From: Lytechinus pictus
Lineage: Eukaryota
Assembly: GCF_037042905.1 (NCBI RefSeq)
Contig: NC_087251.1
Location: forward strand, 42,100,001-42,164,000
DNA: 64,000 bases
Reading direction: 5' to 3'
Both the position numbers and the translations under genes were made by a program. The notes under the pieces are model-generated. The model did no database searches. It had not been told where the DNA came from and worked only from the letters and a program-made list of their open reading frames with translations. Of the stretch, positions 25,615-61,489 are shown piece after piece (positions within the stretch are counted from its first letter, which is position 1; the number at the start of each line of letters is the position of its first letter).

Positions 25615-25908
25615 CAGGAGTTACCATAAACAGAAACAGAAACAACTTAATAATGTTTGTAATAACAATATCATGTTAAGTATTATAGGGACAGCTGGTA
25701 GAACAGTTTTTCGGAGCTGAAGTGGCTACCCTGGTTAAAATGACATCATTTTTATTATTGTTTGTTATCTGTAACAAGGAAAAGCTGTGAAGAAAGAGAG
25801 ATAATAGAACCACAGGTCCTTTATAAAATGGGACACATGTAGAGTGAAAATACATGTAGAAATTCAATTCAATTCAACACAATTCAAATAAAAAACTCGG
25901 AGACTTAC

Positions 25909-25993
25909 TGTATAGGCATTGTTGGATCTTTTCTCTTATACTTCTGTTCTGATGACATATGCTCCCATTTGAAATGAAGACTCCAATCAAAGC
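25909..25993 (-). CDS. GALNT: GalNAc-transferase exon ([28 protein letters not shown])
   Basis: GFDWxLxFKW motif; gtAG / GTAAGT; 85 nt, phase 1-2. Confidence 0.97.
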
Positions 25994-38590: not shown

Positions 38591-39295
38591 GGTGGTGGGT
38601 TATTGAGCACTACAGTTATGTATACCATCCTAAAAGAGCATTCTTGTAATATAGAGGTATTTCAAGACTTTTTTATCAGGATATTTATTACAGAATTTCC
38701 TTTATCATATTCACATTCCTCCCCAGTTCACCAACTCATTTCATTTTGGTGTTGCTGCTGAAAATGATTACTTAATTGAAGTTTTCAGGTGTATTTCTTT
38801 AAGTGCTATACAAAATAGATTCAACACATAGGCCTACGCCTAAAATAATGTTGTTATATTAATAATAATAATAGTAACATATTTTACCCAGGGTAGCCAC
38901 TGTTTGTTTGTATGGCTCTATGTAAAACAACCAGACAATGTGTTATCACTAACATCTTAGATTGTAAAATTTATAATACTAAAATTATCACATCTACAGA
39001 TCATAAACAATGTGAAGAAGTATTTTAATCTGACCCATGGCATAGTTTCTTTCAGTAAGAAGTCTAATGACATTGTGCTGTTCAACACCCAAATGAGCTA
39101 AATGGGATCCTGACTGGAAGTCATGACTTGCAACACAGAAGCTTGTAATAGCTGCTCTGCTAAAGATAGGGTCATTATGCTGTACTATTGTGGAGCTCTT
39201 AGAGAATTCTTGTAAATCAAGTATTACTAGTACTTCATTAAGAGCATCACCTTCCGGTCATCTTTCCCCAACAAAATACCGTGTGCTGCACCTGA

Positions 39296-39716
39296 CCATT
39301 TCCATCATCCTCATCATTACCATAATCATCATCATCATCGACAGCAGCATCAGCATCATCATCATCATCTTCATCGTCACCAACATCATCATCACCATCA
39401 TCATTATCATCATCATCACCATCATCACCATCTCCACCACCATCACCATCACCATCATCATCATCACCATCACCATCACCATCATCATCATCATCATCAT
39501 CTTCATCATCATCAACATCATCATCACCATCATCACCACCATCATCACCATCATCATCACCATCATCAACAGCATCATCATCATCATCTTCATCATCATC
39601 ACCACCACCACCACCTTCACCATCATCATCATCATCATCATCATCAACAGCATCATCATCATCATCTTCATCATCATCACCACCACCACCACCTTCACCA
39701 TCATCACCATCATCAC

Positions 39717-39748
<32 letters not shown>

Positions 39749-39948
39749 CCATCATCACCACCATCATCACCATCATCATCACCATCATCAACAGCATCAT
39801 CATCATCATCTTCATCATCATCACCACCACCACCACCTTCACCATCATCACCATCATCATCATCACCACCACCATCATCATCATCACCACCACCATCATC
39901 ATCATCACCACCACCACCATCATCATCATCATAATCGTCATCATCATC

Positions 39949-39992
<44 letters not shown>

Positions 39993-40177
39993 CAGCATCA
40001 TCATCATCATCTTCATCATCATCACCACCACCACCACCTTCACCATTATCATCATCATCATCACCATCATCATCATCCAGTGGGTTCCCTTTTTTCATTT
40101 CTGTATATTATATTTTTTTGTGTTTTGCTAAATACATTGTAACTTTTGTTAAATTTTGGAATGAAAAAGAATAAATG

Positions 40178-42277: not shown

Positions 42278-43968
42278 ATTGAATATGTCTAAGATCTGTT
42301 GCTCAAAAATTTATAAATTACTGTTCCATATTAGGTCCACGCATATTAAAATCATTTTTTTTATGCTGTTCATGATGATAATATATATTTAGATCCCCTT
42401 CCACTTTTCAAGAAGATATTTATACCTGTTATTAACTTGTAAAATCATACTTTCTGTACCATCATTAAATCAGTAAAATTACAATTATGATACAATATTC
42501 AATCAAATAATAATAATAATAGCATTGAGTTCAAGTAAAAGATACTTGATCCCAACTAGATTGAGTTATTCATTAAATATCTTATAAGAGGATTGTTTGC
42601 TTAATACTTCAGAATAGTGTTACCAATGGCTCTATACATCAAGGACCTATACTGGAGAGGCTAGTGATGAGATGATGGCCAATGAATAAGGGTAATTCAA
42701 GATCTTAACAATGGGCATATGCAGCAGGGGTGGGGGGGAATTCCCCCCAAGAAATTTTGAATACTTACATTTTTTTTACTGAAAATGTTCACAAAATTCA
42801 CCACAAGTATGCACGAAATCCTCCAATTTCACTTTACAAAAAGTAAAAGCACCCAAATAACAAGCTTGGTCACTTTGCTCCCTTGCTTTAAACTTTTTTT
42901 TTAAAGTCTACTTATCCTGCCCCCGCAACAAATTCTGCGTACAGCTATAATCTAATCCTATTAACCCTTTCAGTCTCTTAGAAGATTTAAATTCATACCA
43001 AATTATGTCCTTTTATCACATTTTATTTTCCCCTTTATCTTTTTCTACGATATTTGAGAACATATGGAGACTTGTACTTATTCTCTTTCAATTATGAGTC
43101 TCTCTTGATCATATTTATATCATACTCCTTAATTTCACTGGATCAATAGTGTCTTTCACTTGTTGTTGACTGAATTTCACCTCTATTCTTTAAGTGACAT
43201 TTGTGTGAAGCATTTGTATGTTCACTCGAAATTCACTCCAAATTGCGTGATCCTTGATGTCACTACCAATGGGAGTTAAAAACGATTGAAAATGCACTCT
43301 CTTTTTTTTTCTAGAGAGAGAGAGAGAGCATTCCATTTAATTATAATGAAATGCAATGAAAATGAAAAGAAATAATAGTGGTTGGCAGCTCCCAAAGGAC
43401 ATCAATAATTGTCACCATATTTTTTTCTTTTAGAGCATCGATTATATCACTTATGCCATTCTTGGATAGCAAAGGCAATATCCATTGTACGTTCAATAGA
43501 ACCAACCATTTTAAATAAACAATTGAAGCAAAATTGCAAATGCATTTTACAATCTTAAATGCAGATTTTCAGACTGCCTCAAGCTGTGCATGCAAATTGG
43601 CTCAATAGGAATTTCAATGATTTCAAAATACACCACCAGGAAAAATAGAAAGAGGAAAAGAACAAGATGATAGGATGTATATATATATATATATATATTG
43701 ATACTCCCTAGGATTTATTTCAAGGGTTACCTTTACCTCAAAAGGACTTTCAAAGGTGATGGAACAATTTTCAATATTGATTAAAAAAACATCTCATATC
43801 TCCCATGGGAATGGTATTTAATACTTCTTGGTTTCATTCTTTCATTGGATGATACGGTAACATTAGGATATTCATAAGTAGCAAAGAGAGAGTCGCACCC
43901 CCTCCCCCACTAGGTCTCTCGACTCCCTGGATCTGCGGCTGATTATCATCATCATTCATGAACATTAC

Positions 43969-44056
43969 CTCCCCTTAGGTCCGGTGAAGCTCCAACGTAG
44001 TTGAACGTTTGTGTGTTGATGACATCGATGATGGGACTCACTACTCTTGTTGGATC
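43969..44056 (-). CDS. GALNT: GalNAc-transferase alternative exon A ([30 protein letters not shown]), canonical GALNT2-like version
   Basis: VVSPIIDVI...DLRGG motif; caaAG / GTAATG; 88 nt, phase 0-1, joins 25993 in frame. Confidence 0.95.
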
Positions 44057-44058
44057 CT

Positions 44059-45377
44059 TTGAGGGGTAAGGAAAAGCAAGAGGGGGGTAACGAAACAGAG
44101 GGGAAAGCGCAGGTGGTAGGAGTATTATGGGATAGCGAGGTGGTGGTGGTAGTAGTGGTGGTGGTGGTGGTAAAGGGTAGAAAGAATAGATAAACAGAGA
44201 TGCAGGATTGTAATGGTGTCAGTGATTGTGATTAGTTTTAATGCCATGAGAAATGGAAAAATTAAATAAAAATGAAAGCAATTTGATGTTGTGTATTGAC
44301 AGATAGTTAAACATATTGTACACCATGATTTCATGAGGTTATAATGCATCATGCAGCGTGGGATATGAGTGGGGCATGTGTTGCGGGATGTTGTTTTAAT
44401 AGATTGATATTAAACATTCATCAGGACACATGAGAACACATTTGATAGGGTACGTCGACAGACGGTGGATTAAGTACGATAATTTAATGAGAATATATTG
44501 GATGTCATGCATTAAGATGGGGTTTGGTTTCAATGCAATTAGCATCAATATTGATTAGAATGAAATTAAAAAGGATAAATACAAATTGAAAGTCAAGTTG
44601 AGCGGATATAGGGAGAAGACACTTGAAGCAATATTGGGGTAGGATGTCAAGTTTTGAAAACATATAGCATGTTTTAGGAAGAAATTAATGAGAAGTGATG
44701 GGAAAATGGAAAGTCATGCAAGAGGGGTACAATGTTAGGCATATTTAGGATTAGAGAATTACAAGTTTTAAGAGTGAGCAAGATTTATAAAGTGAATCAT
44801 TACAAATAGTACCAAGTGTGATAGAGAGAAAAATGAAGGGTAATATAATGGTATAGGAAAAGTGACATTTAAAATGCACACAGGGTTATAAAACAAAAGT
44901 TGTGAAATTTAAATAAAATGCCATCAGATTGAAATAAATAAAAGAATGAATGCAAGAGAACGAGAGAGAGATACAGAGTAAGCCGAGATAAATACCAGTG
45001 CGCAAACAAAGTTGTATCATTTTAATAATTTTTCATCATGACAGAAGAGCAAATGAAGGCAAATATCAAAATATATCCAAAAGCAATTAGTTTTTCATTA
45101 TTCCAAAGGAATCAGTGTGTTTTATTTGAGGAAGGATTACCAAGGTGATTGGTATGAAATAAGAAAACAGCAAATATGGGTTGAATATATATCCATTATA
45201 TTAGTAGCAAACAAATGCATGCATATATATGCAACAGGAGAATAAGTTAAAATATAATGGGTGATGATGTAAGGAAGAGAAAGGAGGGTAGTTTGGGGAA
45301 CGGAAAAATGAGAGAGAGAGAGAAGGGGGGGGGGGGGGTTAGGAATACAAAAGAAAATGAACAAACACTTGGTTAGT
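44059..45377 (-). promoter_or_regulatory. Very long AG-exclusion zone and putative distant branch point/polypyrimidine tract for exon A
   Basis: Only one sense-strand AG (plus-strand CT at 44622-44623) between 44059 and 45367. CTAAC at 45376-45372 and 45342-45338, followed by a C/T tract. Confidence 0.7.
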
Positions 45378-48133
45378 TGCAATTCATTCACTATGTGATG
45401 TATTAGAATAAAAAAATAACCAGCCCAGGCAAGTTATCAACCCTTTATTTTCACTTCAAACAAAAGCAGCAAAACAACACAATATTGTTAAAATTTCAAA
45501 CAAAAACCCTCGAGAAAAACAAGAGCTTCTTGAGAGAATGTCAAACAGTATTAGCATAAGTACTTCCCACATACTGATCACTGCACTCACATCATGTAAA
45601 CAATCCAGGAGATTTGGGAGGAAAAAGGTGATATTATTGAAGTTTCATGCTAATAGAAACAATATCCATTCATCATCTGCCAGAGAAAACGACCACGATA
45701 ATCCTCTTTATTTCATCCTAAAACACATGATTGCTCGATTCCAGTACAATAATGCACAGTTGATTATCTTTTTTCATTTTTTTTTCATGAACATCAAATC
45801 CTCTGCATTCGCATTCCCAATCATACCAGATTTTCTCTACATCCCTCACTGCATTTTGCTTCCAGCAAATTTCATTACAGATTGAGAGAGGATATTAACT
45901 TATTCCAAACAATAAGAAAACATTTATTGCACTAGAATAGACATTCATCTTGTAAGTTAAAACATTGTGAGTTTCTCCTAAATTCAAGTACTTTTTAATG
46001 TGAAACTGGAATATATAGGAGACTACAAATAACCGCATGGGAGAAACCTTTTTAATGACACCTTTGATCCAGGGTGTTTCTCTCTCCTTGGTGTCCAAGA
46101 CACATGTGTAATGAACTGTGAGGCGTTATGTTTACTCGCTAAGCACTTCTAGAACACATTGGTTTGGTGTTGCCCTACTGGAAAATACACTCTATTTGTC
46201 GAGGACTTAAATAAATCCAGAGCAATTGCAAATAGTGACTGGTCAAACAATTCATATATATTCCCATATGAACAGAATTCTTTTTAAATCTCAAATTATT
46301 TCAATTCAAATATTTCATACCTCACAAGATCTTAATCCAAAATTAATGTTTTGCTTATCACTATTCATATCAAAATTCAAATCCACAAAGGTTGAATTTA
46401 AATCTAAATTTGGTCAATTCACCACTTTTCTAGATTTATTTTAAAATCCTATAAATTTAGAATATGTACAGAACAGCAATGTATAGTGCATCTGCATACT
46501 TCATAATAACTAATGGAGCTGAATCGAAACACTGATTATTTCTGACTTTACCAAAGTGCTGATGCAGTTATTGGATACATTGTGTTTTTTTTCTTTTGTT
46601 TTTAAAAAAATGTCCAGGTGTAAACCTGACCATTACATGACTTGAGAAAAAAAAACAAGTCACACCAATCGTCAAAGTGCCTCAAACATAATTGACTGTG
46701 GAATTGGAGAGCTATTTATTCAGCTCCAGGCTTTACTTGAAACATTTGTGAGGGCGGGTTTCCTGATAAATCTTGTATCAGGTGACTCAGACGTTCATCG
46801 GAAATTGTTCATAAATCGTGGCCTAAACTAATTTTTTATAGTTCTGTACATATTCTGATCATGTTTGACAAGCACTGGAATTCTTTTATCATGTAAACAT
46901 TTCAAAAGGAACCATACATGAATATCAAACAAACATTTCTGAACCAAAACACCAAGCCTATCCTGGTCTCCTAAAAATAATTTCAATCAACTAAAAATCA
47001 AAGAGTTCAGAGCACTTATGGTGGGACCCATATCTTCTGCACAATTAAATCAACACAAACTGGGTCGGCTTATAACCCAAGGAAGCATGTAAAAGGCCTT
47101 ATCTCAGAAAAAAATCAATATTTCAAATTTACTCTATCAGGGCACAGATGTTTGAATCACAAGAATAAGTCTCTGTTCGCCTACTAAAAATACAATTTCT
47201 CCATCTTAATGGTGTCACATCATTACTCATATATTACTTTGATTTTTTTTTAATTTAACATGATTATTTTGCATCATTACCTCTCATTGTCTATGGGCAA
47301 GCATATTTTCATTTAAAAAAAAAGGAGCAGAAATGGCTCAAAATGCCTCAAAATAATTTTTTTTTTGCCTTTACAGTTTTTAATACTGCTCATGATGCCC
47401 AGATTCCTATTAATCTTTAATATCATGATCCAGGCGAAACACGATACCTTGGATCATGGTGTAGACGGTTCAGAATACTATTCTCAAGGTAATTTTCCAT
47501 AATTCTGGAATCACTACATGGTCTACTCGAGTCTTGAGAGATATAAAACCCATCATAGAGAACGGTATTTTACTTCAACTTCACGAACAGGGTCATTAAC
47601 ATATGCAAGAACACTACCACATAACCATGATGACAACAAGTTAATTATTAACATAAGTATTTATTAAAAACATAGCCCCTTCTAGCTGTCAGTTTGTGAT
47701 TCACATCATTTTGCACTTGCTGTATCTAAACTACACGCACTTCACACAATCTGCTTGTTATTAGAATAACATATAATGCACTATAATACTTGTTTGACCC
47801 AGTTACATGTTCCAGGAAGAATAACTTGGAGATAGAAAAAGAATGATGAATTGCAATGTAATTGATATATCAGCACGGTATGCATGGATGAAGAGCGATG
47901 AGTTTCTGCGGAATGCACAAAACAGTCAAGGCTTGCTTGCTTTGCTACCTAACATACATGTTAAACCCACAAAGCAAGTTTTAAGAACAGCAGCTCAAGC
48001 ACATGAGTAGATCAGCTCACATTAAAGAGGTTACCAAAAACACACCCACTGTGAGAGACACAAGGTAGTAACTGTCAGATAATAGTTAATGACCTGTTGG
48101 CTCTCAACAATCAAACCAATCCCAAGTCTGTAC

Positions 48134-48221
48134 CTCCACGAAGGTTCTCCATCGTTCTTGTGTAGTTGAATGTTTCCAAACTGATGATGTCAATAGTGGG
48201 GCTAACTACTACTTCTGGCTT
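48134..48221 (-). CDS. GALNT: GalNAc-transferase alternative exon B (KPEVVVSPTIDIISLETFNYTRTMENLRGG), paralogue of exon A
   Basis: Same 88-nt length and 0-1 phase as exon A; conserved VVSPxIDxI, TFNY and LRGG; gcAG / GTACAG; no stop codon. Confidence 0.88.
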
Positions 48222-48677
48222 CTGCTCGCCCAGTTTAATGAAAGAAAAACAGAAATCAAAACAAAGGGGGATGTTTAAGAAAAAGGGTCCCTACTAAGAG
48301 AGTAGTAGATTTTATGAAAATACACAGAGGTTGAGCTAAGAATACTTAGAATCATGAAAAAACTCACACTTTTTTTATTTTTAAAGGGGGGGGGGGGTCG
48401 ATGGTAAGATAGCGACGTGAGGAACAACCTGTTTGAAAATACATTCATGTAATGCTTGCTTGTATGTTACTGAATTAATGACAAATGTATTCTACCCCAG
48501 TAAAAACTCCATGGAAACAAACAAAATAAAAATACATAGTATATTCACATCTTCATTAGATGTATTAAGGTTTATAATCACTTCAAGCAGCTGATCTACT
48601 TCTTAGATAGTCTAATACCATCTGGGCTAAACCTATTTGGTCTAATTGCTGCTTGGTCTAGACCACACTGGGTTTGA

Positions 48678-49271
48678 AGGGATGGTCCAGGCGGGAGATA
48701 TTTATATCTCAATAAATAGAGTAAAATTCACAGAGCAGAATGCTGAAAATTTCATCACAATCGGATGACAAAGTTATTGAATTTTAAAGATTTCCATTAT
48801 TCCGGTGAAACAGCTCTAGGCATGTCTTTATGAATATTCATTAGGTGGGGTGATGATGTCATATGCCCACTTTTTCTTTTGTATTTTATTATATGAAATA
48901 GGTTTATTCAAAAATGTTCTACTAAGAACTAAAACAATTGGATTTACAACTGATTAAGTGCATTAGTTATTCATTGCCGCAACTTATTTCATCATAATGG
49001 AGACACATCATTTACACATGTATGAAAAAATGAAACATTTATCATTTCATGTAATAACTTATGAAAAAGGAAAGTGGGGATGTGACATCATCAGCCCACC
49101 TAATGAATATTCATGATGATGTGCATAAGTGTTTTCACAAAATATTGATAAACTTTATAATTCAATAACTCTGTTATTTGTTATCCGATTTTGATGAAAT
49201 TTTCAGCATTTTGCTCTGTGAATTTTACTCTATTTATTTAGATATAAATATTTTCAGCCCGGACCATCCCT
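48678..49271. mobile_element. Kolobok-like element inserted in an older TTGGTCTAA/TTAGACCAA-rich repeat
   Basis: AGGGATGGTCC / GGACCATCCCT-TTAA; long internal inverted arms. Confidence 0.85.
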
Positions 49272-52810: not shown

Positions 52811-54007
52811 CACAGACTAACGTACTAGCCTGCACAAGTGAGCATGTTACATTGTACTTCACATTGTGACTATGCAAGCTATTTTATGAGATGTGACTGG
52901 GTCTTGTGGTCTTTCATTAATGTATTTCATCTCCTATTCTAAAGACAGCTCAATGCACAAACATTGCTTCTGGCCATAGCACTGCCTCAACAAACATACA
53001 ATGCACTATTCAACTAATATTCTGAATTTAAGAAAGGTTGAGAATTGAATTTTACCATAAATTCATCCCAGTCCACCGCGTTATCATTGGGATCATTAGA
53101 GCATTGTTGACTTAAGTTTGAGATATTTCTAAAAATGTTATGCATAATCCAATCAGTTTGAAGCCATGCGTCAAGAGTGAATCAATTATTTCACACTTGA
53201 ATACCGGAATTCATGTCAAAGAAAAATCAATTTCAGAATGTTATGAACTCCACAAGAGGAAATTCCATCAAAGGACACATGTAGAGGTGTAATATCGCCC
53301 GTGGGAAAGAGAGAGAGAGGGGGGGGGGGGACATTACTTCAATGAACTTTTGATTCCAACATTACTAGCTTTTTTGAGATGTGAACAGGGTCAGTTGCAA
53401 CCTCATGTTCTATGAAAGTGGTGCCAAAGGCGACACATTCTACTAATCTAGGAAAGAGAGCAATCGTACTCCGGGCGCACATCGACCATGCTGCGAGTGA
53501 CAAAAGAAGCCTAAGGGCAAACTGGCGTTGCAACCGCTCGTCGTCAAAATTCAATTAAGCACACATGAATCTCCCCGCTTCCTCTCTAATGTTTCATCGC
53601 AAAAGAAAATGTTGAAGGGGACAGAGTGACAATGGCGTTGACTTTGCAGGGTTGATTTTTAGACAAATACAGCCGAGGCACTGGTTCTACCGATCAGGTT
53701 TCACATGAGAAAAAAAAAGCCCCCTGGACAAGGGATCCATATCGGAAGCTAAAATACACCGACAATAATGGTTGGATTTAAAAGGGTTTTAGACTTCAAA
53801 GCTGATGAATATTGGTAGGATGCAATCATGCTTGATAAATATCATCATTTGCCTGAATTCAGTTGTGATGACTGAGCAATTTTTTCCCATGTCAAGTACA
53901 ACAAAATCTATGCTCAAACGACATGAAAAAGCTTAAAGGGGAAGTTCACCCTGAAAAAAAAAACTATTGTAAAAATAGCAGAAAAAATAATAAACAAATA
54001 TTGCAGA

Positions 54008-58931: not shown

Positions 58932-61489
58932 ATATATGCTGTGAAGTGTACCTACGTTTCAAGTAAATAAATAAGTGTTTGGTACTGCAAAATCGTACAA
59001 TAGCCTTAAAAACTTCTGAAAAGCTTCAATATGTCAGTTTTTAAGGCTACTGTACAATCTTGCGGTACTAAACCCATTCACATCACCTGGGTTGGGTGCA
59101 GCAAAATGTGGGTAAAAACACCATGTCTGGGATTCTAACCCATGACCCTCTGACTGAAAGAGGAGAGTCGGAACCACTAGATCACGACAACCCCCACGTA
59201 TCATTAAGAAGCTCCATGGAAAACCAAGTAATACAAAACAGAAGGGGAAAAGGAGTAGGTATCATCTATGCATCTTCACAATCCAAATTCCATTAGGATA
59301 TCAAAGTCACATGAATCTAGATCTTTATTTAATGACGAGAACCTTTCAAAGGAATGAAACTTGCGGTTACTCTGTTTCAAATACGGAAGATAATGCCACC
59401 CGAGTAATCTCTCCAAAGCTTCTTTTTTTATCAGATTAGTGATGAGTTATCGGCTTTTGTGATCTATCCCTTCTAAAGTAGATGTGGAATGAGAAATAGT
59501 CAAGAGTTTGTGAGTAGGGGTGGTAGGAATTCTATCTAGCCAGATTAAGAGGTAGACCTAGTTTCACACAAATTGTCCACTTCTTTTGGGGGGGGGGGTA
59601 AAAAAATGATTTTTTTTTTTCGTACAAAGTCTTGTGGTAGGCGATATCCCCATTCAAAAAGTAAAACTTGCCTTCTTCAAAAAAAGCAAAAACAAGTTAA
59701 AGAGCGTAGCTTCTCTTGATTTTTACAGGCACAAATTTACAGAAAGGTTGCCAATTTAGTCAAATCAGTTTGTTTTATTGCCCATCACTGGCAATTGGCC
59801 GCCTTTGAATTCAACCAGGGATCAATTAGATGTCTTAGTTTCAGGCTATGGACAAATTTATTTCTCATTCAACTGTAATTTGCCCTTCCTCAGAAAACAA
59901 TCTGAAATTGATGAAACATATCTCCCAGGCTGAGCTATGTTGAATAACAAGTTGATTACTTCTCTTCTGTAAATTGTGTTGAGTAGCTTGAAGACATTAT
60001 CACTTATCTCACCCCCTCACAAAATTGGAGGAAAATTGAAGGCGGTAAAGACGGGAAGAGGGCCGTATGAGAATAGATTGGAATAGATATGGAATTGGAA
60101 AGAAATGGACAACATGCAGCAAAACACCATGAAAGTGGTAAAAATAGATAGGGTTTTAGGAGGGGTGAAAAGGAAAAGACAGAAAAAAAATCAAGAACCC
60201 GTTTTTGATAGGAGATTCATGGTTACATTAATCAAATAAAGCAGAATTAAAAAACAGCCCCACACATGTAAAAGTGTTTAAGATCTTACATAGAAATACA
60301 AAATATATAAATAGGCTACCTTTCATATTAATTTTTCATCTAAAATTGATTGTGACTTATCTAAGTAATCTGAAATCTGTTTACAAATTAGTATACACAT
60401 TTGTGCAGTTTTCCGGGCTAACTTTTGATTCTTTTCCTAACTTGACAACCCATTACTTACTGCCAAAAGGGACATTTTATAAGCTCTTTGTAAAGACTGA
60501 AGGACTGAAGCAGGTTCAATAGTATTCTCATTTAGAATAACACCAGATGCTCCCTCGCATAGATATTTTGCAGATAATGGTTGTCAGATTTGATATTGTA
60601 ATTAAGGTAAATGTGTCATCACAAATTATATTTTAAGCAAAAAAGAAAAACCTTGCATGCATAGTTTTAGTGTCATCAAACAGCCATACATAGCCAAAAC
60701 CCACGAAGGTTATCAGTTGTATCTATTGGAAGGTTTTGAAATTGCTGTAGTGTTGTGAAAGTTACTGCATCCCCCAATATCACCATTGGGAGCAATCAAA
60801 GTTTAATAATGTGTCTTAGCCGTCCGTCCATCCACATGAATTTTCTTTAGAGTTTCATGCCTTTTCTTACTTTGTCCTGGGAATCGTTAGTGGGTTTTTG
60901 TTGATGATGCTTATGCTCACAAACTCATTCACTCTTCATTTCCTGCGCATAATTAAAGTATTTCCCCCATTTTACACATTAAATTGATCATTTAATGAAA
61001 TTAATGTGGACATGGTCTAGAGGTGCTGAATGCAAAATGCAAACAATGAGCTTTTTTTTTTAAAGAAGAAAATTATTCAGCTTTTTTAATCAAAACATTT
61101 CAGCAGGAAAAAATATTGATGTAACTGTAGCTATTTTTATGGGAGATCATCATTTATTACTGTATGAATTTCCATGATTGTCTTGATTTTATTTGTTTAA
61201 TGCACAATTTCAATTTTCATACAATTTCTTGAAGAGAATATTGTTGATATTTTTTGTGGATCAAGTGGTAATCTATATTTTTTTGTTAATGATGGGGCTT
61301 TAAGATTGTGTTTTTCAACAGGAAGCGTTTCCAAATGGGCTTGCCCCCCCCCCTTGTTCCAACCCTTATATATATATAGGCCTATTATTATCTTTATTGA
61401 GATATTTTATAAAACATATTATTAAATGAAATGTATAATTAATTTTCTCCTAAACAGTTGTATTTCTTTTAACATAATCAGATAATTAT

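Follow-up and report, generated by a model that had tools for sequence, protein, structure and literature searches.

A very long AG-exclusion zone upstream of one of two homologous exons in a GalNAc-transferase 2-like gene

An intron of a minus-strand GalNAc-transferase 2-like gene (GALNT) contains 1310 nt with a single sense-strand AG, ending exactly at the acceptor of an 88-nt exon (exon A), and by its sequence features this stretch is a very long AG-exclusion zone of a known kind, spanning an unusually long distance. That branch points beyond the conventional distance explain the zone has, in our estimate, a probability of roughly 0.55; on this reading, exon A would use at least one branch point much farther upstream than the usual 20 to 40 nt, and purifying selection would for that reason keep the zone AG-free. 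The zone, the exons, and the one internal AG are placed as follows in the window, i.e., the whole 64,000-nt stretch of DNA that was analyzed.

44058..45367, minus strand: AG-exclusion zone, 1310 nt with 1 internal sense AG (A at 44623, G at 44622), from dinucleotide counts and statistics
44622..44623, minus strand: the single sense AG within the zone, context CAAGTGT, 565 nt upstream of exon A
44057..44058, minus strand: acceptor AG of exon A, context ccctcaaAG/GAT
43969..44056, minus strand: exon A, 88 nt, a canonical GalNAc-transferase segment (29 residues), donor GAG/gtaatg
48134..48221, minus strand: exon B, 88 nt, encoding KPEVVVSPTIDIISLETFNYTRTMENLRG, acceptor gcag/AAG, donor GAG/gtacag
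25908..25993, minus strand: next downstream exon, 18 kb from exon A

On the plus strand, where a sense AG reads as CT, this dinucleotide occurs at 44057 and then at 44622 and 45368 only, so that CT is missing over 564 nt (44058-44621) and again over 745 nt (44623-45367), while the runner-up among CT-free runs across the 64-kb window measures 268-269 nt. Under the usual definition, the zone extends for 565 nt, and another 744 AG-free nt follow past the single AAG. A preliminary description had reported one plus-strand CT across ~1.3 kb, and the recount agrees, with 44622 the sole CT in 44058-45367. Its arguments that TC stays common here and that low C content is no explanation were borne out as well: TC occurs 23 times (observed/expected 0.82), and the plus-strand base counts of the zone (A 517, G 347, T 337, C 109; in the sense direction, T 39%, C 26%, A 26%, and G 8%) predict 28.0 CT against the 1 observed, with none of 20,000 mononucleotide shuffles yielding one or fewer (mean 28.0, minimum 11). 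Each half is empty in its own right (0 AG against 12.6 expected in the proximal half, P 3e-6, and against 15.1 in the distal half, P 3e-7). The 109 plus-strand C are followed by A 84 times and by T once. In the sense direction, G follows A in 1 of 337 cases compared with a rate of 0.170 in the other introns of the gene, a rate that predicts 57 AG for the zone (binomial 4.5e-26). This is a drop of ~50-fold after A, whereas G after T, C, or G falls merely 1.4- to 2.4-fold, and TG, with 84 occurrences on the sense strand, is common. The depletion is thus real, AG-specific, and strand-specific.

Nothing comparable precedes the other nine acceptors of the gene, where AG-free zones span 27-73 nt. 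The preliminary description had also called for AG-exclusion zones to be ranked, and in a genomic background of 264 kb (the window plus 20 stretches of 10 kb from this genome, both strands read) just three AG-free runs are longer, all within one tandem-repeat block whose compression ratio of 0.16-0.17 contrasts with 0.34-0.36 for this zone. As 443 of the 3930 possible single substitutions in the zone create an AG, it would be expected to fill quickly without selection. Copy and repeat searches indicate that the zone is single-copy and non-repetitive: its matches elsewhere in the genome are to simple repeats only, mostly to a GGT run, with a single match at the C-run/(TC)n; its tandem repeats comprise that 11-copy GGT run and three short arrays of ~2 copies each; and searches of the zone for long direct or inverted repeats, and for Rfam families on either strand, returned none. 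Given the simple-repeat matches, the short low-copy arrays, and the lack of long repeats, a repeat or mobile-element origin was rejected, in keeping with the earlier remark that no transposon is recognizable here.

The identity of the gene comes from a protein search using exon A; no Pfam family was detected in the 150 of 351 kept minus-strand open frames that lie between 27.6 and 56.7 kb. Exon A is present in spliced RNA at the boundaries given above, as positions 1099-1189 of a 2237-nt contig of run X1 match 43968-44058 with no mismatch. RNA mapping covered three raw rRNA-depleted runs and one contig set on 43200-49199, and the raw depth within the zone is at most about 1 across the three runs. 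The few reads in the region all have their first mate on the plus strand, which in usual stranded libraries denotes minus-strand RNA. Four kilobases upstream lies exon B, a diverged tandem duplicate of exon A with the same length (88 nt) and phase, AG and GT at its borders like exon A, a protein identity of ~52% (through shared alignment to GalNAc-transferases), and an AG-free zone of its own of 69 nt. At the very low coverage available, exon B was found neither in contigs nor in joints; an open frame from the genome of a relative (P0005) retains 26 of 30 exon B residues, with similarity ending at the donor. The constitutive exon farther upstream has its donor at window-equivalent ~72937. Exons A and B differ in a conserved segment of the catalytic domain, reading GASPD in A and RTMEN in B. 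Both lengths are 3n+1 (88 nt), so that a transcript with the two exons together, or with neither, would be out of frame; this frame breakage, and not steric hindrance, is the likely basis of any mutual exclusion. The preliminary description had invoked the same mechanism as in alpha-tropomyosin, which in its steric form fails: steric exclusion of the alpha-tropomyosin exon 2/3 type places the branch point of the downstream exon within ~40-60 nt of the donor of the upstream exon, and here the donor of exon B (48133) and the nearest branch-point candidate (45373) are 2.76 kb apart, so that this mechanism is not applicable and was rejected.

The following signals lie at the upstream edge of the zone.

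45338..45344, minus strand: branch-point candidate TCCTAAC, branch A at 45339, 1283 nt upstream of exon A
45310..45338, minus strand: uninterrupted 29-nt pyrimidine run, C14 then TTCTCTCTCTCTCTC, directly after TCCTAAC
45368..45369, minus strand: sense AG at the upstream zone border, context CAAGTGT
45372..45378, minus strand: AACTAAC, alternative branch-point candidate with its branch A at 45373, located 4 nt 5' of the zone-bounding AG

The boundary sequence quoted in the preliminary description (two CTAAC, a C-run with (TC)n, and AAG at the acceptor) matches the DNA. Within the 1364 nt examined, TCCTAAC with its 29-nt run is the strongest branch-point/pyrimidine-tract signal, and in 528 kb of strand sequence just nine CTRAY motifs are followed within 8 nt by at least 15 pyrimidines. 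This TCCTAAC, with its branch A at 45339, would be the most probable branch site, and AACTAAC at 45373 the alternative; placing the branch at about -1283 to -1317 is a tentative proposal. Closer to exon A, no CTRAY motif was found in the last 160 nt, weak yUnAy-like branch sites were read by eye at about -37 and -12, and the last 100 nt are themselves pyrimidine-rich, with a strong tract, so a nearer branch point may be available; nearer candidates also exist at -163 (CACTGAC) and -176 (AACTAAT), and other branch-like sites within the zone lie at -679 (GCCTAAC), -483 (TGCTAAT), and -499 (TTCTAAT). At the RNA depth in the zone, neither of the two exons nor any branch candidate showed joints, lariat-like back-joints, or loose ends in the raw runs.

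Under the distant-branch reading, U2AF and U2 would commit to the strong branch-point/pyrimidine-tract unit with no need of the 3' AG, and after the first catalytic step the spliceosome would take the first competent downstream AG, so that any new YAG in between would become a wrong acceptor and such mutations would be removed. A bolder form, which we consider doubtful, has the second step completed on an acceptor ~1.3 kb past the branch, along a G-poor, structure-free, and AG-free RNA tether. The lone AG at 44622 bears directly on this mechanism, as it comes 717 nt after the branch point proposed at 45339 and, under a strict first-AG rule, would be picked ahead of exon A. A hairpin masking this AG was rejected (the minimum-free-energy fold pairs it weakly, the centroid leaves it unpaired, and z is -0.9), as was a recursive (ratchet) splice site, both AGs (44622 and 45368) preceding TGT and not GT. 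The distant-branch interpretation put forward in the preliminary description stands in part: the depletion, a zone that ends at a spliced exon, the signal at its edge, and the homologous 88-nt exons speak for it, and the AG at 44622 and the nearer branch candidates against it.

The spacer itself is G-poor and, by prediction, almost unstructured, with a folding energy per 200 nt of -16.4 compared with -37.0 kcal/mol. The low-G domain, formed by the 200-nt bins from 44000 to 45399, brackets both the acceptor (44057/58) and the branch-point/pyrimidine signal (45310-45378). Pyrimidines make up 66% of the zone against 51% of the other introns of the gene, and CU-rich motifs exceed expectation (TCTCT, 14 against 3.9; CTCTCT, 7 against 0.9), although TCTT and TTCT are not enriched beyond composition. 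There are 59 yTnAy matches and eleven pyrimidine runs of at least 9 nt. The sense strand also carries four copies of TGCATG, a motif picked post hoc, where 0.6 were expected and 5 of 2000 Markov simulations reached four.

44350..45223, minus strand: four TGCATG on the sense strand, at 45223-45218, 44720-44715, 44511-44506, and 44355-44350

Such a G-poor, nearly unstructured spacer with CU-rich and UGCAUG motifs would probably also offer a binding platform to regulators of exon A that recognize single-stranded RNA.

Much of this evidence would also suit a conventional or moderately distant branch (at most about 180 nt), with the zone acting as a pyrimidine-rich silencer or enhancer platform for putative PTB-like, PCBP-like, or Rbfox-like binding, and with AGs purged because an AG after its internal pyrimidine runs or yUnAy motifs would be a cryptic acceptor. 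The pyrimidine share, the TCTCT, CTCTCT, and TGCATG counts, the many yTnAy matches and pyrimidine runs, the pyrimidine-rich tract that abuts exon A, and the candidates at -163 and -176 all agree with this explanation, which could also accommodate the AG at 44622, provided that it sits in a poor local context; yet it leaves unexplained why the zone starts exactly at the best CTAAC/pyrimidine-tract unit, and TCTT and TTCT do not rise above composition, and we consider it a serious, if rather unlikely, alternative. The same AG takes a different role if two units are stacked, the distal 744 nt leading from a branch at 45339 to this AG, which would be a 'poison' or cryptic acceptor, and the proximal 565 nt serving exon A from an internal branch. 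Position 44622 is indeed the first AG past the strong branch-point/pyrimidine-tract unit, each half is AG-free independently, the internal sites at -679, -483, and -499 are on hand, and the reading frame that extends upstream from exon A ends near 44219. This arrangement predicts, however, an exon A lengthened by 565 nt with an in-frame stop, and the X1 contig, whose match to the genome stops at 44058, is without that extension; in the preference order of acceptors, an AAG/T context such as that at 44622 is a poor one; and at the RNA depth in the zone no reads support it. We therefore regard stacked units as quite improbable.

Explanations that dispense with splicing of exon A fare worse. Strand-asymmetric G-poor sequence, such as a decayed simple repeat or an old mobile element, might lack AG by composition as a neutral by-product, and such tracts do occur: in another intron of the same gene, a 677-nt plus-strand stretch (window-equivalent 73741-74417; C 45%, T 37%, G 3%) has 0 AG against 3.2 expected. 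For the zone, however, composition predicts 28 AG where 1 is seen and the shuffles never come near, G remains common after T, repeats are limited to the GGT run and the three short arrays, and the boundaries coincide with splicing signals, which leaves the neutral reading close to refuted. A constraint on the plus strand instead of the GALNT pre-mRNA, for example a DNA-level element or selection against CT in an antisense transcript, is hardly credible: no point in its support was found, the few reads imply minus-strand RNA, Rfam gave no match on either strand, and we know of no process that excludes CT.

Distant branching has precedents, against which the zone can be set. As excerpted from Gooding et al. 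2006 (PMC1431707), mapped distant branch points include rat alpha-tropomyosin exon 3 (branch at -175), PTB exon 11 (zone 381 nt, branch at -351), and GABBR1 exon 23 (zone 288 nt, branch at -275), and experimentally verified branch-to-acceptor distances stop at about 400 nt. That class is defined by an AG-free stretch of at least 100-150 nt, which the 565 nt and then 744 nt before exon A exceed, and distant branch points there typically lie near the 5' end of the zone, where TCCTAAC with its pyrimidine run (45344-45310) and AACTAAC (45378-45372) are found here; the edge signal thus fits the published pattern. Like the vertebrate cases mapped in that excerpt, in which the exons are alternatively used, the present intron is AG-free from a consensus branch-point sequence and pyrimidine tract to the acceptor, with the branch candidate at the 5' end and regulatory motifs between. 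Unlike them, the zone here is 3-4 times longer than any mapped one, is known from sequence alone, contains one internal AG, and comes from an echinoderm-like animal, and, unlike the steric cases, its branch candidate is 2.76 kb from the upstream exon. The preliminary description had limited such zones to a few hundred nucleotides at most, which holds for mapped branch points but not for predicted zones, of which the same source gives 1126 nt for a human PTPRS exon and 590 nt for Fugu PTB exon 11; our zone is therefore an extreme member and not a new class. It shares with both a kilobase or half-kilobase AG-free intron tail and candidate distant branch points predicted in silico. The human PTPRS zone, though, is nearly the whole of a 1132-nt intron (the mouse orthologue has 229 nt only, by the same excerpt), whereas ours is a discrete domain in a 4-kb intron with a sharp change in composition.

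Other published systems resemble parts of this arrangement. Distal branch sites derived from lariat reads (Taggart et al. 2017, PMC5378181, in excerpt) lie, like the candidate here, ahead of exons that are used conditionally; they fall where U2AF2 binds and were proposed to slow splicing; 'distal' there means >100 nt, and the contribution was modest in three minigenes in which a conventional branch point was also present. By analogy, a modest distal contribution beside a conventional branch point could apply here too. Tandem homologous exons inside polypeptide GalNAc-transferase genes are likewise known from C. elegans, where gly-5 (9b/9c/9a) and gly-6 (8a/8b) carry mutually exclusive exon clusters (Kuroyanagi et al. 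2014, PMC4165533). The likeness is one of exon arrangement: those exons are 3n with introns of 11 to 34 nt, so that steric exclusion applies, whereas exons A and B are 3n+1 and far apart, and a long AG-free zone is not reported in the excerpted text of that paper. In U2AF-regulated pairs of tandem homologous exons, as in the present pair, the copies differ in the length of the pyrimidine tract and of the AG-free zone (Kralovicova and Vorechovsky 2016, PMC5224494, in excerpt), although the zones there measure 31-131 nt compared with 1310 nt here.

In other animals, the homologous 88-nt exon was examined at 43 metagenome-derived loci. The AG-free zones there measure 19-115 nt, and wherever 600 nt of upstream sequence could be read the AG counts are normal (24-52 observed against 26.6-48.5 expected), which suggests that the AG-free trait did not arise early. 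Within the genome itself, two paralogues (C7:46.56 Mb and C13) have another exon structure with normal AG density and spacing. In a relative (P0001), the intron read-through upstream of exon A spans 128 codons (384 nt) with G at 4.7% of first codon positions, compared with 8-31% in the 33 minus-strand open frames of this window that measure 80 aa or more and lie elsewhere than in the zone (a set that leaves out two frames inside the 39.25-40.1 kb microsatellite block); since the stretch looks partly CA-repeat-like, it lends weak support. A word-index search for orthologous read-through of the frame 45140-45433 gave no match, and the sole match to the frame 44128-44409 in an exhaustive search (P0006) was rejected as an unrelated tandem-repeat protein.

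How the spliceosome finds the 3' AG after branching, and over what distance, is debated between linear scanning and diffusion, and the question could usefully be tested on a natural, non-repetitive 1.3-kb spacer that is AG-free by selection, G-poor, and predicted to have little structure. If the bolder form holds, the 1.3-kb tether would span ~3 times the verified maximum, and an unstructured spacer would let the 3' AG be sought over practically any distance. The zone would also show AG-exclusion zones operating outside vertebrates. For the gene itself, the tether would in that case provide an adjustable delay and a platform for regulators, deciding which of two variants of the GalNAc-transferase catalytic domain is made, and regulated use of exons A and B could alter the properties of the enzyme.

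The near-absence of plus-strand CT (sense AG), with a single internal occurrence, that the preliminary description had reported was confirmed by a dinucleotide count: CT is found at 44057, 44622, and 45368 and nowhere between, and the zone's two CT-free runs, at 564 and 745 nt, exceed all others in the 64-kb window, the longest of which reaches 268-269 nt. Plus-strand counts for the zone (44058-45367, 1310 nt) are 517 A, 347 G, 337 T, and 109 C, from which 28.0 CT are expected versus one seen, and the lowest count among 20,000 shuffles of the zone was 11. Its 109 C are followed by A (84), G (14), C (10), and T (1). In sense orientation, the probability of G after A is 1/337 in the zone versus 0.170 in the gene's other introns, while those of G after T (0.162 versus 0.226), C (0.040 versus 0.095), and G (0.092 versus 0.216) drop modestly, which indicates a zone that is generally G-poor but nearly devoid of AG in particular. 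Each half is significantly depleted by itself, the proximal one (564 nt) with no AG for 12.6 expected and the distal one (744 nt) with none for 15.1.

Against a background of 264 kb from this genome (both strands of the window and of twenty 10-kb stretches), AG-free runs longer than those of the zone occurred only in a tandem-repeat block of one further stretch (L031), and in a scan of 600-nt windows the zone ranked second, with a microsatellite block at 39.4-40.0 kb first. Apart from simple-repeat matches, mostly of its GGT run and in one case of the C-run/(TC)n tract on its upstream border, the zone has a single copy in the 812-Mb assembly. Tandem arrays inside it are the 11-copy GGT run and three short ones, each of about two copies; a search for direct and inverted repeats gave none of sizeable length, and no Rfam family matched the zone.

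The low-complexity block at 39250-40130 (~850 nt) has trinucleotide-type repeats, all six frames open (poly-I/T, poly-H, poly-D/G, etc.), and the longest stretches in the window that lack GA, GG, TG, or GT (561-826 nt). A further intron of the gene contains a 677-nt plus-strand AG-free tract, antisense to the gene (L013:9741-L014:417, window-equivalent 73741-74417), with internal repeats apparent by eye; its composition (C 45%, T 37%, G 3%) suffices to explain the lack of AG (3.2 expected). The 268-nt CT-free run at 60017-60284, in the gene's 24.7-kb intron and pyrimidine-rich in sense, ends (sense) in ...ttttgtgAG followed by GGGGTGAGATAAGTG, which could be an unannotated acceptor or recursive-type site.

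Used as a protein query, the frame ending the zone matched polypeptide N-acetylgalactosaminyltransferase 2-like proteins; among named matches, that of the sea urchin Diadema antillarum (P0002) ranked first, ahead of proteins from a leafhopper and the starfish Acanthaster. Placing P0002 on the window sequence, with acceptor positions then refined, gave a minus-strand gene:

Window-equivalent ~73062-72937, beyond the window, minus strand: preceding constitutive exon, ending ...GCTCAG/gttagt
48221-48134, minus strand: exon B
44056-43969, minus strand: exon A
25993-25908, minus strand: exon
About 22176, 19818, 17973, 15968, 10054, and 7946, minus strand: six exons
7163-6993, minus strand: exon with the stop codon

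These positions place introns of 24.7 kb, 4.08 kb, and 18 kb around the exon B/exon A pair. The 29-residue exon A peptide is canonical GalNAc-transferase sequence, and exon B encodes KPEVVVSPTIDIISLETFNYTRTMENLRG; both exons are 88 nt long, of equal phase, and bordered by AG and GT. As 88 is 3n+1, using both together or neither shifts the reading frame, and any exclusivity of the two would likely rest on this frame disruption.

RNA data for 43200-49199 came from three raw rRNA-depleted runs carrying this species label and from one of several contig sets. In the raw runs, whose depth across the gene region was at most ~1, no joints or loose ends were found at the exons. A 2237-nt contig of set X1 (depth 9) matched 43968-44058 at its positions 1099-1189 with zero mismatches and nothing else within 43200-49199, a pattern indicating a spliced transcript with exon A at its predicted borders; its three extra matching letters agree with the ends of the neighbouring exons. 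Neither this contig nor the low-depth raw runs (at most ~1) supported exon B, and a few X21 reads at 47800-48399 extend into the intron. First mates lay on the plus strand for all reads in the region, indicating minus-strand transcription if the libraries are of the usual stranded type. Just sense-upstream of exon B, 48600-49199 is a high-copy repeat with reads on both strands, a word depth of 12,000-37,000 in an RNA-like contig set, and numerous loose ends at 48868 and 48900.

A relative's genomic open frame on a 1391-nt contig (P0005) carries KPDVVVSPTIDLINLGTFNYTRTMENLRGG, and its alignment with exon B (26 of 30 exon residues identical) ends exactly at the donor, with the flank upstream of the exon less alike; this comparison of sequences favours exon B being a conserved coding exon. 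The same 88-nt exon is tandemly duplicated in two of 78 loci, both metagenome contigs of another animal (L045:1994-2460 and L060:1516-2041), the canonical copy standing first and a diverged copy (…DYRGTSGSLKGG and …EYRGTSANLRGG, respectively) 290-340 nt downstream, across introns of ~290-340 nt with ordinary AG density. This exon may have been duplicated on more than one occasion. In C. elegans, experiments have established mutually exclusive exons for two GalNAc-transferase genes, gly-5 and gly-6 (PMC4165533).

The gene's nine other acceptors have AG-free zones of 27-73 nt, and AG spacing is ordinary in two paralogous segments of the same genome. Scanning metagenome contigs by alignment of the exon A peptide yielded the 78 loci of other animals, of which 54 (L033-L086) were examined and the 24 most distant (L087-L110, 22 of them without a downstream intron) omitted. 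AG and GT at 88-nt spacing were present in 48 of the 54; setting aside three cDNA-like loci and two with <100 nt upstream left 43, many of them near-identical copies, with AG-free zones of 19-115 nt. Loci with 600 nt of upstream sequence had AG counts as expected (24-52 versus 26.6-48.5). The kept spacing and short zones indicate that the exon boundary is old and the long zone is not. In a relative's called frame (P0001), 128 intron codons read through into exon A, with G making up 4.7% of first codon positions and 4.7-13% of second ones; the corresponding range is 8-31% for 33 further long frames on the minus strand of the window, taken outside the zone and omitting two in the 39.25-40.1 kb microsatellite block. 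From this, low G upstream of exon A seems to be shared with the relative, but part of the P0001 stretch resembles a CA-type repeat.

In sense, the zone starts with ...gcaACTAACcaAGtgtttgttcattttcttttgtatTCCTAAC, then C14, then TTCTCTCTCTCTCTC, and ends with ...ctcttgcttttccttacccctcaaAG/GATCC. A CTRAY search of the 1364 nt before exon A gave 14 matches, none nearer to exon A than -163, including (positions upstream of exon A):

-1317, minus strand: AACTAAC
-1283, minus strand: TCCTAAC, with 97% pyrimidine in the 30 nt that follow, including an unbroken 29-nt run; by far the highest downstream pyrimidine content of the 14
-1145, minus strand: TACTAAT
-679, minus strand: GCCTAAC
-483, minus strand: TGCTAAT
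-176, minus strand: AACTAAT
-163, minus strand: CACTGAC

The two CTAAC motifs and the strong pyrimidine tract previously placed at the zone start are thus present (-1317, -1283, and the 29-nt run). CTRAY followed within 8 nt by at least 15 pyrimidines occurs nine times in 528 kb of strand sequence, and such a unit exactly at the edge of an AG-free domain is unlikely to be due to chance (roughly 1 in 1000 by our estimate). Another 29-nt C-run plus (TC)n tract, resembling 45310-45338, lies farther upstream in the same large intron (53303-53331, minus strand). Steric exclusion of exons A and B was ruled out by distance, as 2.76 kb separate the branch candidates from the exon B donor.

Composition shifts sharply at both edges of the zone (14-23 G per 200 nt inside versus 22-64 outside), and predicted folding energy per 200 nt is -16.4 kcal/mol in the zone versus -37.0 +/- 6.2 outside, the seven inside windows folding more weakly than essentially all 40 outside (Mann-Whitney U 279/280). 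Words enriched in the zone are ACCACC, TCTCTC/CTCTCT, C-runs, and TGCATG; TCTT and TTCT occur as composition predicts. Four TGCATG lie in this G-poor sequence:

45223-45218, minus strand: TGCATG
44720-44715, minus strand: TGCATG
44511-44506, minus strand: TGCATG
44355-44350, minus strand: TGCATG

These four compare with 0.6 expected (a count of four was reached in five of 2000 simulations, for a motif list picked after seeing the sequence), and 11 of the 109 sense G belong to TGCAT. The CU-rich words and UGCAUG, from the same post hoc list, we take to be candidate PTB-like and Rbfox sites, respectively.

The sole internal AG and the zone-bounding AG share the minus-strand 7-mer CAAGTGT (44619-44625 and 45365-45371, respectively), a word without enrichment across the window (11 matches versus 8.8 expected); the exon A acceptor is likewise AAG. 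Acceptors are preferred in the order CAG, UAG > AAG > GAG. The AAG at 44622 may be genuine as a cryptic acceptor, may be passed over as a poor one, or may represent an allele that is rare or young. The lack of AG in the distal half by itself speaks for some role of what lies upstream of 44622.

For exons with distant branch points, PMC1431707 and PMC5378181 describe intron sequence that is AG-free from a consensus branch point with adjacent pyrimidine tract to the alternative exon's acceptor, with regulatory elements between, and the zone agrees with this signature. We give a probability of about 0.55 to branch points beyond the conventional distance explaining the zone, the AG depletion then reflecting purifying selection against AGs usable as acceptors after upstream branch formation; 443 of 3930 possible single substitutions in the zone would create an AG. 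Low G and little predicted structure might then keep the spacer accessible for AG search or single-strand-binding regulators. Against a single branch at -1283 with scanning to the first AG stand the AAG at 44622, not convincingly hidden in predicted structure, the good pyrimidine tract and weak branch-like sites near exon A, and the verified branch-to-acceptor distances, at most ~400 nt in the papers cited. The earlier limit of a few hundred nucleotides thus holds for verified distances but not for predicted zones, which in PMC1431707 reach 1126 nt in human PTPRS (nearly the whole intron; 229 nt in the mouse orthologue) and 590 nt at Fugu PTB exon 11.

Literature matches listed (human, mouse, yeast, plant) included no echinoderm AG-exclusion zone or distant branch point, and of three papers found on mutually exclusive exons together with this enzyme, none dealt with echinoderms. 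The mechanism behind the zone is not new, its kind being known already; as this type of zone is published, with none from echinoderms among the matches listed, the Lytechinus pictus zone represents an extreme example from a phylum new to this kind, and its G-poor domain has clean borders.
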